A model generated the notes under the pieces. The model was not told the origin of the DNA. It did no database searches and saw only the letters and a list, made by a program, of their open reading frames with translations. Positions 5,834-15,617 of a DNA stretch of 27,788 nt are shown one piece after another (position 1 is the first letter of the stretch; the number at the start of each line of letters is the position of its first letter). The position numbers were made by a program, and so were the translations under genes. The stretch is from a virus: the IMG/VR virus record IMGVR_UViG_3300027391_000002; one strand, written 5' to 3'.

Positions 5834-6313
5834 ATGGCAAAACGAAGAACACTTGATGATGACCTCATTAGAGACATTGCAATTTACCGCGAACACGGAT
5901 TGAGTTTCCGTGCTATTGCGCGAAAACTTGGTATTCCTTGGTCAACATTTTGGTGTTGGTTAGAGGCAGGCAGAAATGCCACGCGCATCAATAATAATAA
6001 AAAGTTGTGGGATATGGTTGGAAGAGCCGATTTCAATCTGGTATATGATGCTGCCGCTACAGTTCGTCAAGCAGCAACACAGGAACGTATTACGAAAATA
6101 CAGGAGAAAGACACTTTTGATAGTGAAGGCAACCCAATCACAGAAACAACCATAACGAAAGAGGGACCAAGCCTACAAGCAGCCTTGAAAATACTGAAGT
6201 TGTTTGCTGAGCGGTGGAGAGGCTACCATGAATCTATTGACATGGAAGATAACCAAGCCTCTGTTGGATATGATCCGTTAGCAGACCTTGTGGATGACGA
6301 TAATAAAAAATAA
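5834..6313 (+). CDS. HTH protein resembling a small terminase subunit (TerS-like).
   Basis: N-terminal HTH GLSFRAIARKLGIPWSTFWCWLE. The C-terminal ALKILKLFAERWRGY resembles the conserved W-L-E-R-R tail of many TerS proteins. The track ORF begins at 5756, but the first 26 residues look non-native. Confidence 0.45.
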   Translation: MAKRRTLDDDLIRDIAIYREHGLSFRAIARKLGIPWSTFWCWLEAGRNATRINNNKKLWDMVGRADFNLVYDAAATVRQAATQERITKIQEKDTFDSEGNPITETTITKEGPSLQAALKILKLFAERWRGYHESIDMEDNQASVGYDPLADLVDDDNKK

Positions 6314-6504
6314 AAAAGCCTTTAAAATCTACCACTTTGAAGTGGTTAATATTTAAAAAACTAAAAAAATACTAAATACACAGTACGTAGGCAATAGTAT
6401 CAAAATAGTATCATCACAGTAGTCTGTGAAAAATTGGAAGTTCGCTTTTATGAGCCTTGTGAGAAATGTTAATGTGTGTTGTATAAAGGGTTCGGGGGCA
6501 TCAT

Positions 6505-6525
6505 AAATGCGAATAGTTCGCATTT
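6505..6525 (+). other. Hairpin module H1 (9-bp stem, tag loop) with a conserved 3' flank.
   Basis: aaatgcgaa-tag-ttcgcattt, followed by attacgattgtgaaaa. Confidence 0.6.
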
Positions 6526-6605
6526 ATTACGATTGTGAAAACGGTCACTAATTCGTGAATTGCCAAAACAGAAAACATTACTGTTACTGGTGTAGTCAAG
6601 AAGAT

Positions 6606-6626
6606 AAGTGACAATAGTTGTCATTT
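6606..6626 (+). other. Hairpin module H2 (tag loop). The stem sequence differs from H1 but the pairing is kept.
   Basis: aagtgacaa-tag-ttgtcattt has one G.U pair, valid only on the plus strand. It is followed by attatgatggtaaaaa. Confidence 0.6.
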
Positions 6627-6742
6627 ATTATGATGGTAAAAACAAGGTAAATATATGATGAATCACAGTGTATACATGGGAATGTGATTGATTGAGATCA
6701 CGAAAAATCACAGTATGTTCAATTTAGAAAATTGGTGTGTGC

Positions 6743-6950
6743 GGAAGTGGTTAATATATAAATACTAAAAAAATACTAAATACACAGTGTATGGTAAATA
6801 GTGCAGGAATAGTGCATGCACAGTAGTCTGTGAAAATTGAAAACATAGCATTAATTCGTGAATTGCTAAAACAGAAAAAGCTTACTGTTACTGGTGCAGC
6901 TAAAAAGATAAATGTTAGTAACTAACATTAATTATGATGGTAAAAGTAGG
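6743..6950 (+). repeat. Non-coding duplicated module, copy 2.
   Basis: Shared blocks: gaagtggttaatat..atactaaatacacagt, cacagtagtctgtgaaaa, taattcgtgaattgc.aaaacagaaaa, ttactgttactggtg and attatgatggtaaaa. Confidence 0.8.
6911..6929 (+). other. Hairpin module H3. The stem sequence differs again and the pairing is kept.
   Basis: aatgttagt-a-actaacatt, followed by aattatgatggtaaaag. Confidence 0.6.
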
Positions 6951-12787: not shown

Positions 12788-12797
12788 AACACAACCC

Positions 12798-13250
12798 ATG
12801 AACACAGCAGACTATTTAATTCAATCACTCATCAAAATGCGTGAAGATGCTACAGAGTCCGACAACCTTGTCGAGGTGAAGTTGGTATTACCACACCGGT
12901 TGTTAGTAGAAGATGTCTTGCTCGCTGGAGGTAAGATCGACAATTTAGGATTACTGCCAGCAAACAATAAGGCAGATGTGGTGCCAGACGTGACGGTGAA
13001 GATCCCAAAGTCATGGATTGTTGGTATGTGTATAGACAATTGTAAGAAAGTGTTTTATCTCATTGATTCACAAGTGCCGAATGCTAAGGAAGTGCCTTTG
13101 TTTATATTACCACTTGAAATGCCGATGTTGGTCTATGAGGTCGTTTCACCAGACGTGCGTATATGCTCCGCTGCACCACTCAAAAAGATGCAGATGGATC
13201 TGAATAGCGACAAATATATCAGAAACGTGCTCTCACACCAACTGAACTGA
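12798..13250 (+). CDS. Hypothetical protein downstream of the tape measure gene.
   Basis: ORF begins 10 nt after the TMP stop. No motif recognised. Confidence 0.65.
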   Translation: MNTADYLIQSLIKMREDATESDNLVEVKLVLPHRLLVEDVLLAGGKIDNLGLLPANNKADVVPDVTVKIPKSWIVGMCIDNCKKVFYLIDSQVPNAKEVPLFILPLEMPMLVYEVVSPDVRICSAAPLKKMQMDLNSDKYIRNVLSHQLN

Positions 13251-13396
13251 AAAATCGTGTCCAGAATGGCTTGTAACGCATCGCAGATAACAGAGTGAAG
13301 ATTATATCACGGGGAGCGGATGGGATTATACGGTGTGATGAAATTGACGCACCGGTGAATGAATAAGAACACTCGCGATTATGAAGGAGATACAAC

Positions 13397-13702
13397 ATGC
13401 CAAACTATAAGATTGTTCCTGTATACATCCGATCAAACTCAAGACAGAATATAACTAAAGAGTCGTGGTGGGATGTCCGAGTATATGAGTCCAAAATAAC
13501 AACAAACATTGAAGGATGCACCATAGAGCAAGAACAGTTATTGGTGACAATTGAAAATTGTGAAACACAGGACGATGCAATCACGTGTGCTGAACATTTC
13601 ATAGAAAACAACCTTGACGACCTTGAAAGGTGGACGGGCAACATGTCTGGTGAGTATTGTATCGCTGGAGATCGGTGGATAAAAGAAATTAAATCCAAAT
13701 AA
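13397..13702 (+). CDS. Hypothetical protein.
   Basis: Strong RBS gaaggag lies 7 nt upstream of the ATG. Confidence 0.7.
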   Translation: MPNYKIVPVYIRSNSRQNITKESWWDVRVYESKITTNIEGCTIEQEQLLVTIENCETQDDAITCAEHFIENNLDDLERWTGNMSGEYCIAGDRWIKEIKSK

Positions 13703-13721
13703 TAAACAATAGGATAAAGCA

Positions 13722-15617
13722 ATGTCATACGTAGGATGGAAAACACCTATACCTCCTCAACCTGCCGAACACAACGTATCCGGTCATAGAGTTGAAAATC
13801 TATATGCCTACTGGGTAGGACCGCGCGGACGATGGACATTCACCGCAGCAAACGCTGATCCAAGCGACACACATCTCATAAACGTCGATATAAATCAAAC
13901 TACAGGCATCTTGACGTATGATACAGCTATTGTTTCCAATCGCACAGTAGAGAAAATCAGAGTCACCGCAGTACATACCAACGGAGACATCGCCTGCACA
14001 GACATCCAAGTCGTTATACAACCTCCTGCGGGGGCTGGTGCCAAAGGCGATACGGGTGATACTGGCAGCGTTGGTGACACAGGTGGTATCGGAGACACAG
14101 GTCAGAAAGGAGATACTGGCGTTTCTATCAAAGGTGATACAGGTGTTGGTGTCAAGGGAGACACGGGTGTATCTGTCAAAGGCGATACGGGCGTTTCTAT
14201 CAAGGGCGATACAGGTGTTGGTGTCAAGGGAGACACGGGTGTATCTATCAAAGGTGATACGGGTAATCAAGGGGAAACAGGTGTTGGAGCCAAAGGAGAT
14301 AAGGGTGATACAGGCGTATCTATCAAAGGTGATACCGGTGTATCCATTAAAGGCGATACGGGTAATCAAGGGGAAACAGGTGTTGGAGCCAAAGGAGATA
14401 AGGGTGATACAGGCGTATCTATCAAAGGTGATACAGGTGTATCTATCAAAGGTGATACAGGTGTATCTATCAAAGGTGATACAGGTGTATCTATCAAAGG
14501 TGATACAGGTGTATCTATCAAAGGTGATACGGGTAATCAAGGGGAAACAGGTGTTGGAGCCAAAGGAGATAAGGGTGATACAGGCGTATCTATCAAAGGT
14601 GATACAGGTGTATCTATCAAAGGTGATACGGGTAATCAAGGGGAAACAGGTGTTGGAGCCAAAGGAGATAAGGGTGATACAGGCGTATCTATCAAAGGTG
14701 ATACTGGGAATGAAGGAGATACTGGTGTTGGGGTCAAAGGAGATAAAGGCGATACAGGTGTTGGGGTCAAAGGAGATAAAGGCGATACAGGCGTATCTAT
14801 CAAAGGTGATACAGGTGTATCTATCAAAGGTGATACCGGGAATGAAGGAGATACTGGTGTTGGGGTCAAAGGAGATAAAGGTGATACAGGTGTTGGGGTC
14901 AAAGGAGATAAAGGCGATACAGGCGTATCTATCAAAGGTGATACAGGTGTATCTATCAAAGGTGATACAGGTGTATCTATCAAAGGTGATACCGGGAATG
15001 AAGGAGATACTGGTGTTGGGGTCAAAGGAGATAAAGGTGATACTGGCACAAATATCATTGGAGACACAGGTGGTATCGGTGACACTGGTGAATCAGGACA
15101 AAAAGGGGATAAAGGCGATACAGGCGTATCTATCAAAGGTGATACAGGAAGCATCGGTGATACGGGTGTAGGTGATACAGGAAATCAGGGAGACACAGGT
15201 CAGAAAGGCGATACAGGCGAACCCGGCACAAATATCGTTGGAGACACAGGTGGTATCGGAGACACCGGCGAATCAGGTCTAAAAGGCGATACTGGTGATA
15301 AAGGTGATACTGGCAATATCGGTGATACGGGTATCGGAGACACAGGTCTAAAAGGTGACACGGGCGAGAAAGGCGACACTGGTGACATCGGTGATACAGG
15401 AAATGTTGGAGACACGGGCGAAAAAGGTGACACAGGCAACTCTGGTGACACAGGCATTCAAGGCGATACGGGTGTTGTAGACACTTCTAACATAATTGGC
15501 ACAGATCCTATGCCACCAATGGAAACATTTGTTTCATTAAGTACGGATATGTTAGGCAAGATATATATAGATCAATCGGCACTATACACTGAAATATTAT
15601 CATTGAGAAACAGTTAA
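13722..15617 (+). CDS. Collagen-like repeat fibre protein: N-terminal beta-rich domain, long GDTG-based repeat, short C-terminal knob.
   Basis: Dozens of GDTGVSIK / GDTGVGVK octads alternate with [17 protein letters not shown] and [17 protein letters not shown]. The distal part is near-canonical G-X-Y ([40 protein letters not shown]). Confidence 0.9.
14040..15480 (+). repeat. In-frame 24-nt-period tandem repeat array with higher-order units, coding for the fibre.
   Basis: A 74-nt string, ggtaatcaagg...atcaaaggtgatac, recurs identically starting at 14262, 14361, 14532 and 14631. It creates long spurious ORFs in other frames and on both strands. Confidence 0.9.

Follow-up and report, generated by a model that had tools for sequence, protein, structure and literature searches.

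The virus-derived element analysed here, a contig of 27,788 nucleotides (the window), is a closed genome with a genuine tail tape measure protein (TMP) gene, and none of its ORFs matches a large terminase (TerL), portal, capsid, tail tube or lysis protein in Pfam, PHROGs, NCBIfam or PADLOC. The absence of TerL, portal and major capsid genes from a closed genome, noticed earlier by eye, is thus borne out by profile searches. On the best reading, the element is unable to build a virion alone. Because capsid, portal, terminase motor, tail tube and lysis genes are all missing, helper dependence is most likely, and we tentatively read the element as a complete extrachromosomal phage-derived genome, a helper-dependent satellite resembling PLE11 and the EPIPs. 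Its host is supported as Candidatus Poribacteria, a sponge symbiont, by MAG binning and by a host-derived dockerin gene.

Closure and replication genes

Self-comparison of the contig revealed identical 127-nt ends, with a near-consensus sigma-70-like promoter (33-61) lying in an inverted repeat inside the overlap. A length of 127 is a common maximum for assembler k-mers, and repeats could falsely close an assembly graph; both would suit an assembly that is incomplete or wrongly closed, or a phage genome, larger or multipartite, of which this is one segment and whose head genes lie elsewhere. We give this explanation hardly any weight, as a separately assembled JGI contig (L001) crosses the end-to-start junction at 100% identity, and the same 27.0-27.8-kb unit was recovered independently at least 14 times, in different projects and by different assemblers. 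These assemblies break at five different window positions (1, 5959, 9524, ~14400 and ~14450), are at least 99.8% identical once the tract of collagen repeats and a 66-nt repeat are left aside, and never exceed 27,788 bp. Together, these results argue for a closed, complete unit of ~27,661 bp, as the earlier note had proposed, and against the misassembled overlap for which it had allowed. Nothing points to a second molecule, which in practice would amount to a helper.

For replication the element encodes a primase-helicase and an O-like initiator of its own, together with a ribbon-helix-helix protein beside iteron-like repeats, and HU (Table 1). The primase-helicase also contains a P-loop region of ~700 aa that matches no recognised family. 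Its Walker A motif (GAAGTGKS, residue 359) is the sole credible one in the element; a scan of the ORFs found no second ATPase motif, in agreement with the first inspection. The HNH endonuclease call likewise holds (PF01844), and a homologue in the relative L002 is 42% identical. The label "TerS-like", given to the protein at 5834-6313, reaches further than its support, which extends to an HTH protein only: the HTH_38 and HTH_23 scores fall slightly under their cutoffs, and the PHROG TerS match (E=0.008) covers the HTH portion alone. The PDB gave no useful match and NCBIfam no support, and the protein does not resemble the PHROG-type TerS seen in relatives. The AT-rich region downstream holds two direct repeat pairs of ~100 nt, and a 25-nt hairpin occurs in it three times, with compensatory changes in the stems; the region may serve as an origin, iteron, centromere or packaging site. 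A hidden gene in the ORF-poor gap at 6313-7610 was rejected, the gap being filled by this region and the ribbon-helix-helix gene.

Table 1. Features of the element (window positions)
Feature	Position	Strand	Description
Terminal overlap	1..127	.	Identical to 27662-27788; marks circular closure, ~27,661-bp unit
HNH endonuclease	458..874	+	138 aa; Pfam HNH (PF01844)/HNH_5, ~41 bits; many PHROG HNH families
Primase-helicase-like replication protein	1586..4792	+	1068 aa; BT4734-like_N and PriCT_2 domains, C-terminal HTH
HTH protein	5756..6313	+	185 aa (159 aa from 5834); HTH_38 25.1 bits, HTH_23 24.3 bits
AT-rich non-coding repeat region	6313..7080	.	Direct repeats and hairpins
Ribbon-helix-helix (CopG-type) DNA-binding protein	7080..7334	+	84 aa; PF01402, 33.8 bits
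p296	7610..8500	+	284 aa from 7646; acidic orphan, predicted all-alpha, pI 4.8
p166	8514..9014	+	Orphan between p296 and p101; this element only
p101	9022..9327	+	Small; beta-rich look judged from sequence
Tail tape measure protein (TMP)	9434..12787	+	1117 aa; PF20155 TMP_3, 57.9 bits (cutoff 41)
p150	12798..13250	+	Orphan ORF immediately after TMP
p101b	13397..13702	+	Small, acidic, conserved in family
Collagen-like repeat protein	13722..15617	+	631 aa; Pfam Collagen match, residues 539-584
Glycosylation cassette	15632..18842	+	p321, FkbM-type methyltransferase, p102, GT1 glycosyltransferase
p321	from 15632	+	First gene of cassette; conserved orphan
FkbM-type methyltransferase	16575-17210	+	
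p102	17200-17508	+	Contains 66-nt tandem repeat
GT1 glycosyltransferase	17505-18842	+	
Dockerin protein	18829..21282	-	817 aa; HExxH motif, C-terminal dockerin (Dockerin_1, 32.6 bits)
HTH_36 protein	22124..23071	+	315 aa; resembles phage and plasmid replication initiators (O-like)
Divergent control region	24031..26055	.	HTH_17 protein (-, 24031-24486) and p250 (+, 25303-26055; conserved in family)
HU/IHF-like DNA-binding protein	27034..27336	+	100 aa; PF00216, 34.1 bits

Tail genes and the search for a head

A single long rightward operon runs p296-p166-p101-TMP-p150-p101b-collagen-like protein-glycosylation genes. The tape measure call is well founded, with matches to nine PHROG TMP families in addition to TMP_3. 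Its N-terminus is an Arg-rich coiled coil, residues 158-285 form the TMP_3 domain, and hydrophobic segments lie at ~380-410 and ~460-490; the protein is 66-73% identical in two relatives. To speak of tail genes in the plural was nevertheless an overstatement: the only other one is the collagen-like repeat protein, and the window showed no recognisable tube, chaperone, distal tail, hub or terminator protein. TMPs of ~1000 aa are ordinary in small siphophages, which weakens the earlier argument that a 165-nm tail would be surprising on a small element. The "long fibre" assigned to the collagen-like gene has a Pfam Collagen match in its favour, but its PHROG "tail fiber" matches are confined to the repeats. 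These are chiefly 8-residue KGDTGVSI units, with true G-X-Y repeats near the C-terminus, and the length of the protein differs between assemblies. Its gene lies directly downstream of p101b both here and in the relative L016, and p101b may be a fibre assembly partner.

The first of three alternatives offered earlier, that the head genes are too divergent or compact to recognise, is largely excluded. Every ORF above 330 aa is assigned (primase-helicase, TMP, collagen-like protein, GT1 glycosyltransferase and host-derived dockerin protein), only one ATPase motif exists, and as a positive control plain tblastn picks up the portal of a divergent phage (L005), the contig with the closest TMP seen alongside head genes. 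The best capsid candidate was p296, the largest unassigned ORF at the "head position". The AlphaFold and Foldseek check for head folds suggested for 7646-8500 gave an AF2 model with 12 helices and zero strands (pLDDT 73, pTM 0.33) and no Foldseek match at E<=0.001; on this predicted all-alpha structure we rejected p296 as a capsid, portal or terminase fold. Its homologues number three among 1.84 billion representatives, every one a family member, and orthologues are present in five of the six lineages of the family. p101 occurs in all six and is the most conserved family protein (70-74% identity). It sits where the tube gene lies in a related true phage (L047); it matched nothing in Pfam, PHROGs, NCBIfam or the PDB, and AF2 yielded no reliable model for it (pLDDT 37). 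Neither p150 nor p166 matched Pfam, PHROGs, NCBIfam or PADLOC, and p166 was not found in relatives.

The p296-p101 pair is the signature of the family and is orphan among 1.8-5.8 billion proteins. It is conceivable that this pair, possibly joined by p101b and the glycosylated collagen-like protein, forms a new particle that needs no HK97 capsid, portal or terminase, so that the element would be an autonomous virus with an unrecognised virion. The conservation of p101, its constant position adjoining p296 where the late operon starts and the phage-like operon layout fit such a virus, which we nonetheless consider very unlikely: there is no packaging ATPase beyond the primase-helicase, lysis and egress genes were not detected, the p296 model is generic, and a TMP is meaningful only with a tube, which is absent. 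All capsid and tube proteins known to us are also larger than the 101 aa of p101.

The family and a related tailed phage

Six lineages, found on 17-34-kb contigs with a shared core, make up the small family of which the element is a member. The relatives' contigs were read in part; the absence of head genes is established for the window and not for every relative, and no integrase occurs in the window or in any family region seen. The relatives L002 and L012 carry a PHROG-type TerS (E=1e-11 to 1e-12), followed by a conserved ~300-aa protein in which no Walker A was seen by eye and which is not TerL, and an overlapping chaperone-like ORF pair precedes their TMP. The TerS, the chaperone-like pair and the RuvC of relatives are missing from the window. 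phrog_6299 owes its TerS label to annotation only; in IMG/VR contigs DNA methylases come after such genes, and neither the PDB nor GenBank phages gave a match. Three related contigs (L015-L017) have no TMP at the syntenic position, and the gene is therefore not core to the family. Discordant identities between the window and L002 (TMP 66%, p101 38%) and between the window and L012 (TMP 34%, p101 74%) indicate that intact modules are exchanged.

The module of TMP, adhesin, collagen-like and glycosyltransferase genes in the relatives shares homology with the distal tail module found in a genuine tailed phage, contig L047. There, a tube gene and a chaperone-like ORF pair come ahead of TMP, and adhesin, collagen-like and glycosyltransferase genes follow it. 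The TMP of L047 is 39% identical to that of L012 over 719 aa (E=4e-93) and its adhesin 31% over the full length (E=8e-166), its collagen-like protein is 44% identical to those of L015/L016, and the glycosyltransferase match is at 40%. The window's own collagen-like protein matches that of L047 at 32% over 174 aa, through repeats only, and L047 lacks both p296 and p101. Another headless TMP case is L048, an integrase-flanked island with a solitary TMP.

Surface or secreted-protein cargo makes up ~30% of the genome. The 817-aa dockerin protein, probably secreted given its hydrophobic N-terminal segment, has full-length homologues (54-62% identity) at 20 loci in ~19 Ca. Poribacteria/"Latescibacterota" MAGs, where they are flanked by host genes, and the gene appears to be host-derived cargo. 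This invites the reading, raised earlier as a plasmid with domesticated tail-like genes, of a small multicopy Poribacteria replicon that keeps ancestral siphophage fragments (TMP, HNH, fibre genes) and whose main cargo is now surface and secreted proteins of use within the sponge matrix, among them the collagen-like glycoprotein, the dockerin metalloprotease-like protein, and the glycosyltransferase and methyltransferase. It would pass on vertically or by some other transfer, its TMP non-functional for tails or co-opted. The replication genes and captured host gene agree with such a plasmid, as do the lack of an integrase, the stability of the element over many assemblies, the lack of TMP at the syntenic locus of L015-L017, the recurrence of cargo-type genes in several lineages and a window without a verified TerS or chaperone pair. 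It is the main rival to the satellite reading, and we judge it the less likely of the two. The 1117-aa TMP ORF is intact and keeps its high identity between lineages in which the other proteins are just 29-42% identical, which suggests selection on TMP function. For a replicon of 27.7 kb, the element showed no partition ATPase, relaxase or conjugation gene in our searches; members of the family come from several metagenome projects and still exchange modules, and relatives keep TerS-type, RuvC and chaperone-like phage genes.

Proposed helper dependence and known satellites

The tail-encoding, capsid-borrowing satellite among the earlier alternatives is the best supported, though the window has no verified TerS, integrase or tube. 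Beyond the closure, the genuine TMP and the missing head, packaging, tube and lysis genes, we count in its favour the lack of a spare ATPase, the predicted all-alpha p296, the six-lineage family with a TerS lacking an adjoining TerL in L002/L012, the homology to L047, module exchange, L048, the PLE11 and EPIP precedents, and profile searches in which no conjugation or mobilisation genes were detected. Against it we count that neither a known helper phage nor a sign of encapsidation goes with it; that the window is without the relatives' PHROG-type TerS (itself labelled by annotation), chaperone-like pair and RuvC; that TMP is not core; that PICIs, PLEs and EPIPs, unlike the element, have an integrase; that the cargo would fit a plasmid equally; and that some partly read relatives may hold head genes.

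As a satellite, the element would replicate when a related putative helper phage infects or is induced, and the helper's terminase would package the element's DNA in helper capsids. Among relatives, their own TerS may serve; in the window element HNH or HTH proteins, or plain concatemer packaging, may do so. Its TMP, and probably the glycosylated collagen-like fibre, would join chimeric tails with helper tube and baseplate parts, as in PLE11. In the most speculative step, the acidic p296 and the highly conserved p101, which stand in place of head, connector and tube genes, may act as assembly-redirecting factors.

TMP-bearing satellites as such are already described. PLE11 of Vibrio cholerae contributes a TMP, TAC and hub of its own to the chimeric tails that it builds, and putative tmp genes are present in other satellite families, including some cf-PICIs (Nature 2026, PMC12987554, Extended Data Fig. 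10 for cf-PICIs). The EPIPs, satellites of Mycolicibacterium aichiense, encode a TMP proposed to alter hijacked tails (bioRxiv Dec 2025, PMC12822802). Like the element, whose helper dependence is read from its genes, PLEs are headless, with their own TMP and no tube or capsid genes, and the chaperone-like ORF pair of L002 and L012 adds to the likeness. PLEs, however, are integrated islands of ~18 kb that carry a serine recombinase, whose known helper is ICP1 and whose tail is of the myovirus type, whereas the element is episomal, measures 27.7 kb, has no integrase, recognisable chaperone or hub, or known helper, shares no sequence similarity with them and belongs to a different host phylum. 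EPIPs are also small elements with TerS, a scaffold-like protein and TMP, lacking a full tail or capsid set, but they were isolated as particles and encode a serine integrase as well as head-to-tail adaptors and stoppers, none of which was found for the element.

Satellites of the SaPI/PICI type share a primase/replication module, the lack of lysis and capsid genes and, with the element's relatives, TerS without TerL. The element differs in its size (27.7 kb against ~7-18 kb), in having TMP and fibre genes, in its unverified TerS and in that no integrase or Stl/AlpA-type module was found. cf-PICIs are likewise non-autonomous, with an HNH gene and a phage-derived structural module, but encode capsid, portal, protease and connectors and borrow tails; the element has none of these and keeps only distal tail parts. 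To call it their mirror image would imply whole tails, whereas it more likely supplies TMP and fibre parts only. Phage-plasmids (P1, N15 and SSU5 types) are extrachromosomal replicons with phage genes as well, but they encode complete virions and a lysis system, and the element encodes neither. P4, the satellite of P2, differs in having an integrase and a cos site matching P2 and in lacking TMP. Its alpha-helical assembly-redirecting proteins Sid and Psu offer a possible analogy for p296, of role rather than of any shown sequence or fold similarity, and P4 resembles the element in that it can persist as a multicopy plasmid through its own primase-helicase.

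Closure and coding content of the element

The window closes on itself, as the earlier note had proposed. Its two ends share an identical 127-nt stretch, and a separately assembled JGI contig of the same element (L001) crosses the end-to-start junction at 100% identity, so that the overlap does not appear to be the misassembly that the note had considered. In exact-protein look-ups the element turned up at least 14 times, each time as a contig of 27.0-27.8 kb, among assemblies of JGI, NCBI, ENA and Logan. The longest copy is 27,788 bp, and the copies break at five distinct points (window positions 1, 5959, 9524, ~14400 and ~14450). 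Outside the collagen repeats and a 66-nt repeat, they are at least 99.8% identical. Terminal identity, the junction-crossing contig, repeated recovery, the different break points and this near-identity together give good support to a closed element of about 27,661 bp. The variety of sources and break points, and the lack of any longer copy, also argue against a mis-closed genome; that the genome is mis-closed or multipartite is the least probable of the explanations we consider. Near-identical DNA is absent from GenBank phages and PLSDB plasmids, and Rfam and tRNA scans of the window gave no matches. The 66-nt repeat is a perfect tandem duplication of 2.1 copies in a small ORF, which is one unit shorter in other assemblies (80 aa versus 102 aa).

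The genes for replication and regulation include the HNH endonuclease previously picked out by eye, now supported by a Pfam profile match, and a primase fused to a P-loop region. The window further encodes DNA-binding proteins of the HTH_36 type (an O-like initiator), the HTH_17 type and the RHH type, as well as a homologue of HU. Two sigma-70-type promoters, each near-perfect and with an extended -10 element, are predicted, one within an inverted repeat (TTGACTCAT...ATGAGTCAA) in the 127-nt closure overlap and the other, a 12/12 match, just upstream of the primase-helicase gene.

Profile searches leave the tape measure protein (TMP) reported in the earlier note as a genuine one. Its nearest matches are all metagenomic, and its matches in GenBank phages are restricted to the TMP_3 domain. 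The long fibre described in the same note fared less evenly: the protein is collagen-like and fibre-like, but its PHROG "tail fibre" matches run through the repeats only. Most of it consists of a 24-nt, 8-residue repeat (KGDTGVSI) rather than G-X-Y, with true collagen repeats near the C-terminus only. The gene is not of one length in all assemblies of the element (complete calls give 554 or 631 aa), and several of them break within it. It is followed by glycosylation genes for p321 (a conserved orphan), an FkbM methyltransferase and a GT1 glycosyltransferase. The last of these shares 42% identity, across 92% of its length, with a Synechococcus cyanomyovirus glycosyltransferase (ACG-2014f group) and matches PHROG 3408 (E=1e-99).

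Features of the window, with the evidence for each where it is brief
Feature	Coordinates	Strand	Evidence or remark
Predicted promoter	33-61		sigma-70-type
HNH endonuclease	458-874		Pfam
Predicted promoter	1490-1518		sigma-70-type
Primase-helicase	1586-4792		BT4734-like/PriCT-2 primase (BT4734-like_N, PriCT_2 domains), ~700-aa P-loop region, C-terminal HTH
HTH protein	5756/5834-6313		
AT-rich non-coding repeat region	6313-7080		
p296	7610-8500		orphan
p166	8514-9014		orphan
p101	9022-9327		orphan
TMP	9434-12787		PF20155 TMP_3, 57.9 bits (cutoff 41); nine PHROG TMP families
p150	12798-13250		orphan
p101b	13397-13702		orphan
Collagen-like repeat protein	13722-15617		
Glycosylation cassette	15632-18842		
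Small ORF with repeat	17200-17508		66-nt duplication at 17322-17457
GT1 glycosyltransferase	17505-18842		
Cargo ORF, 817 aa	18829-21282	minus	signal-peptide-like hydrophobic N-terminus, HExxH motif, dockerin domain
p250	25303-26055		conserved in the family

Head, packaging and lysis functions

Searches of four HMM libraries (Pfam, PHROGs, NCBIfam and PADLOC) with the window ORFs gave no match to TerL, portal, capsid, protease, tube, connector or lysis families. For the large terminase subunit this negative covers Pfam, PHROGs and NCBIfam, and for lysis genes it covers lysozyme, amidase and peptidase families. No tail tube, chaperone pair, distal tail or hub gene was recognised among the window genes, p166, p101, p150 and p101b being orphans. 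No window ORF has a recombinase domain or a Pfam match to a relaxase, a coupling protein or type IV secretion genes. The sole credible Walker A motif, GAAGTGKS, is the one already noticed in the primase-helicase. The largest unassigned ORF is at most 321 aa and all ORFs above 330 aa are confidently assigned otherwise, which leaves no space for TerL or a typical portal.

The best-placed capsid candidate is p296: no other unassigned ORF in the head position is as large. The earlier note, which took this ORF as 284 aa, had proposed modelling it in search of HK97, portal, TerL or jelly-roll folds. AlphaFold2 predicts twelve helices and no strands (pLDDT 73, pTM 0.33), and Foldseek found no match to the model in BFVD or PDB at E<=0.001. 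Such a predicted all-alpha fold cannot be reconciled with an HK97, jelly-roll, portal or terminase fold, and with the empty profile searches it bears out the note's observation that no TerL, portal or major capsid protein is recognisable. As for p321 and p250, the former lies within the glycosylation cassette and the latter within the early region. The p101 model, from a four-sequence alignment, was unusable (pLDDT 37), and PDB sequence searches with p101, p321, the C-terminal region of the primase, the TerS-type proteins of the relatives and the window HTH protein gave nothing meaningful. As a control, plain tblastn detects the portal of a divergent phage (L005), which has the closest TMP seen in any contig that also has head genes. 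The profile negatives, the lack of a spare Walker A motif or of ORF room, the all-alpha p296 prediction and this control together make it unlikely that head genes are present in a form too divergent or compact to see, the first alternative that the note had offered.

The gene labelled TerS-like in the earlier note encodes an HTH protein only. Two Pfam HTH matches fall just under their cutoffs, its PHROG TerS match (E=0.008) is restricted to the HTH, and PDB and NCBIfam searches lend no support. The ORF-poor gap just 3' of this gene (6313-7610) was the best prior candidate for a recoded, hidden or intron-split TerL, and was rejected: each of the six frames is interrupted, and the gap contains direct repeats, hairpins and the RHH gene instead. 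Its AT-rich non-coding part has two pairs of ~100-nt direct repeats and three copies of a 25-nt hairpin (ATAARTG-NNNN-TAR-NNNN-CATTWAT), with TATGATGGTAAAA after each copy. The three stems vary by compensatory changes, and for two of the copies the fold is well below that of shuffled controls. The motif is confined to this region within the window, with 0.12 copies expected by chance.

A gene of two relatives, L002 and L012, does match PHROG 6299 ("terminase small subunit"; E=1e-11 to 1e-12) and is not followed by TerL. At the expected place of TerL, overlapping the stop codon of the TerS-type gene, lies instead a conserved ~300-aa Cys/Trp/His-rich protein (L002 6703-7647, L012 8040-8915; 39% identity), which has no Walker A motif, no family match and no counterpart found in the window. 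The same relatives have an overlapping ORF pair just before TMP, where tail assembly chaperones would be placed. HMMs of the relatives' TerS-type protein, post-TerS protein, RuvC and chaperone-like ORFs revealed no remnant in the six window frames. The TerS label of this group is a PHROG annotation only and deserves caution; the relatives' proteins have no GenBank phage match. Five IMG/VR contigs have phrog_6299-like genes (30-38% identity); next to come are DNA methyltransferase genes (ParB_N+N6_N4 methylase or C5 methylase) and no obvious TerL.

Relatives, tailed phages and known satellites

Related contigs of 17-34 kb were found in other ENA assemblies by searching with p101, the most conserved protein (70-74% identity): L012-L014, L015-L017 and L018. 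Searches with TMP added L002/L003. All of these came from a protein-cluster index; no relative was recovered when IMG/VR, JGI metagenome contigs and GTDB genomes were scanned with TMP and p101. As the IMG/VR viral contig scans did not recover the element, elements of this kind probably evade hallmark-gene virus detection. Whereas p101 occurs in all six lineages, p296, which adjoins it, occurs in five. The primase is also in five, DnaB taking its place in L012. Genes for p250, p101b, glycosyltransferase, p321, collagen-like and dockerin proteins recur in several lineages; RuvC is in four relatives but absent from the window, and HNH is in the window and L002. No integrase is present in any family region seen. 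A full HMMER scan of 1.84 billion representative proteins found only three homologues of p296, all family members, and a word-index search found p296 alone.

The TMP gene is restricted to the window, L002 and L012, and is absent at the syntenic position in L015-L017. Between the window and L002 the identity is 66% for TMP and 38% for p101; between the window and L012 it is 34% and 74%. This discordance indicates that intact modules, among them the TMP cassette, are exchanged between family members by recombination. One relative, L015, has a DDE transposase gene (15071-16225, minus strand) between its p101b-like and collagen-like genes, which its sister contig L016 lacks.

Comparison with the contig L047, a real tailed phage, shows homology between its distal tail module and that of the family. 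In this phage a tube gene (455 aa, a weak Phage_tube_2 match), a chaperone-like ORF pair and TMP are followed by a He_PIG adhesin, a collagen-like protein and a glycosyltransferase. Matches to the family include TMP (39% over 719 aa, E=4e-93) and the adhesin (31%, full length, E=8e-166) of L012, the N-terminus of a 529-aa L002 protein (44%), the collagen-like proteins of L015 and L016 (44%) and the L016 glycosyltransferase (40%). Neither p296 nor p101 is in L047; relative to such a phage, p296-p101 stands in place of the head, connector and tube genes. In the L005/L004 phage (42% GC) the portal can be recognised, and the core of its TMP shares 39% identity with the window TMP. Another headless TMP carrier is an integrase-flanked ~12-kb island in a 67-kb contig (L048, region ~1179-19148). 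Its only structural gene is a TMP_3 gene of 1036 aa, accompanied by a DUF3854 protein and small ORFs. This island adjoins a second integrase/AAA_25 island. The window has no nucleotide similarity to L004, L005, L047 or L048.

The element is unable to make virions alone. Nevertheless, it keeps a long, intact, strongly conserved TMP beside phage-type fibre genes. The reading we favour, tentatively and at somewhat short of even odds, is that of an episomal, helper-dependent satellite. The terminase of a helper phage would package the element, and its TMP, probably with the glycosylated fibre, would enter chimeric tails. It is tempting to speculate that p296 and p101, from their place, are new assembly-redirecting factors, for which they are good candidates. 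The main rival, a phage-derived plasmid that is now mainly surface-protein cargo, we regard as rather less likely. The plasmid-side features of the window are only the initiator-like protein, the RHH protein, the repeats and HU; neither ParA nor conjugation or mobilisation genes were found there. An autonomous virus with an unknown virion is improbable. More improbable still is a specific form of it, in which p296-p101, p101b and the glycosylated collagen-like protein would make a new type of particle lacking HK97 capsid, portal and terminase; the 17-34-kb Poribacteria circles would then be an autonomous virus lineage, with the TMP module an optional add-on.

Precedent exists for satellites that encode a tape measure. 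PLE11 of Vibrio cholerae has its own TMP, chaperone and hub and builds chimeric tails from helper parts, and tmp genes occur in further putative satellites (PMC12987554); the EPIPs of Mycolicibacterium aichiense encode TerS, a scaffold protein and TMP (PMC12822802). Compared by description, the defining trait common to these and the window is a satellite-encoded TMP in an element without recognised tube or capsid genes. In contrast to PLE11, no chaperone or baseplate hub is recognised in the window, and its relatives have an ORF pair that is chaperone-like by position only; PLEs and EPIPs also have an integrase, which the window lacks. What is new in the window is its host phylum, its larger size and its existence as an integrase-free episome, together with the orphan core p296-p101. 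Like PICIs and SaPIs, the window has its own replication module (primase/helicase, P-loop), but it is a closed circle without integrase, and where they have their own TerS without TerL it has the HTH protein, phrog_6299 matches being found in the relatives L002 and L012. With cf-PICIs, which have capsid, portal, protease, connectors, HNH and TerS, it shares HNH only; to call it their mirror image, as the earlier note did, is too strong because no tube or baseplate genes were recognised. An autonomous tailed phage (Caudoviricetes) shares TMP with the window, where TerL, portal, HK97-fold capsid and lysis genes were not found, and a phage-plasmid would have the full structural and lysis set beside plasmid maintenance functions, whereas the window has no such structural set. 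The relaxase, coupling protein and type IV secretion genes of conjugative or mobilisable plasmids are likewise missing, and of the chromosomal tube, TMP, baseplate and lysis cassette of an F-type tailocin the extrachromosomal window has TMP only.

The concept of a tape measure in a satellite is already published: it was not until 2025-2026 that satellite-encoded tape measures and chimeric tails were demonstrated, in Vibrio PLEs and mycobacterial EPIPs. If the element is helper-dependent, the idea would reach an uncultivated phylum of sponge symbionts, an integrase-free episome and a family demonstrated to share its distal tail module with a true phage.

Probable host and dockerin gene

The host of the element is best assigned to Poribacteria, on the basis of bin membership and independent homologues of the dockerin protein. 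The NCBI copy (MPMY01000065.1) was binned in bin70 of the Aplysina aerophoba study, a Candidatus Poribacteria bin of 40.3% GC (PMC5649159); the element has ~42% GC. Full-length homologues of the dockerin protein (54-62% identity) occur at 20 loci in about 19 MAGs labelled Poribacteria or "Latescibacterota", and the relative L017 also has a dockerin/HExxH gene (61% identity). The possibility of integrated copies in Poribacteria chromosomes was rejected: the flanks of the chromosomal homologues hold host genes, and none of them is an element gene. The dockerin gene thus appears to be cargo captured from the host. This gives a concrete host link for a persistent, repeatedly recovered element, and host-derived matrix-interaction genes on it may play a part in sponge symbiosis. 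Two Poribacteria chromosomes encode, a few kb from the dockerin homologue (L025 2236-5688, L026 ~2600-4850), a protein of ~1150 aa without primase domains that is homologous to the C-terminal P-loop region of the family primase-helicase (26% over ~785 aa, E=1e-63).
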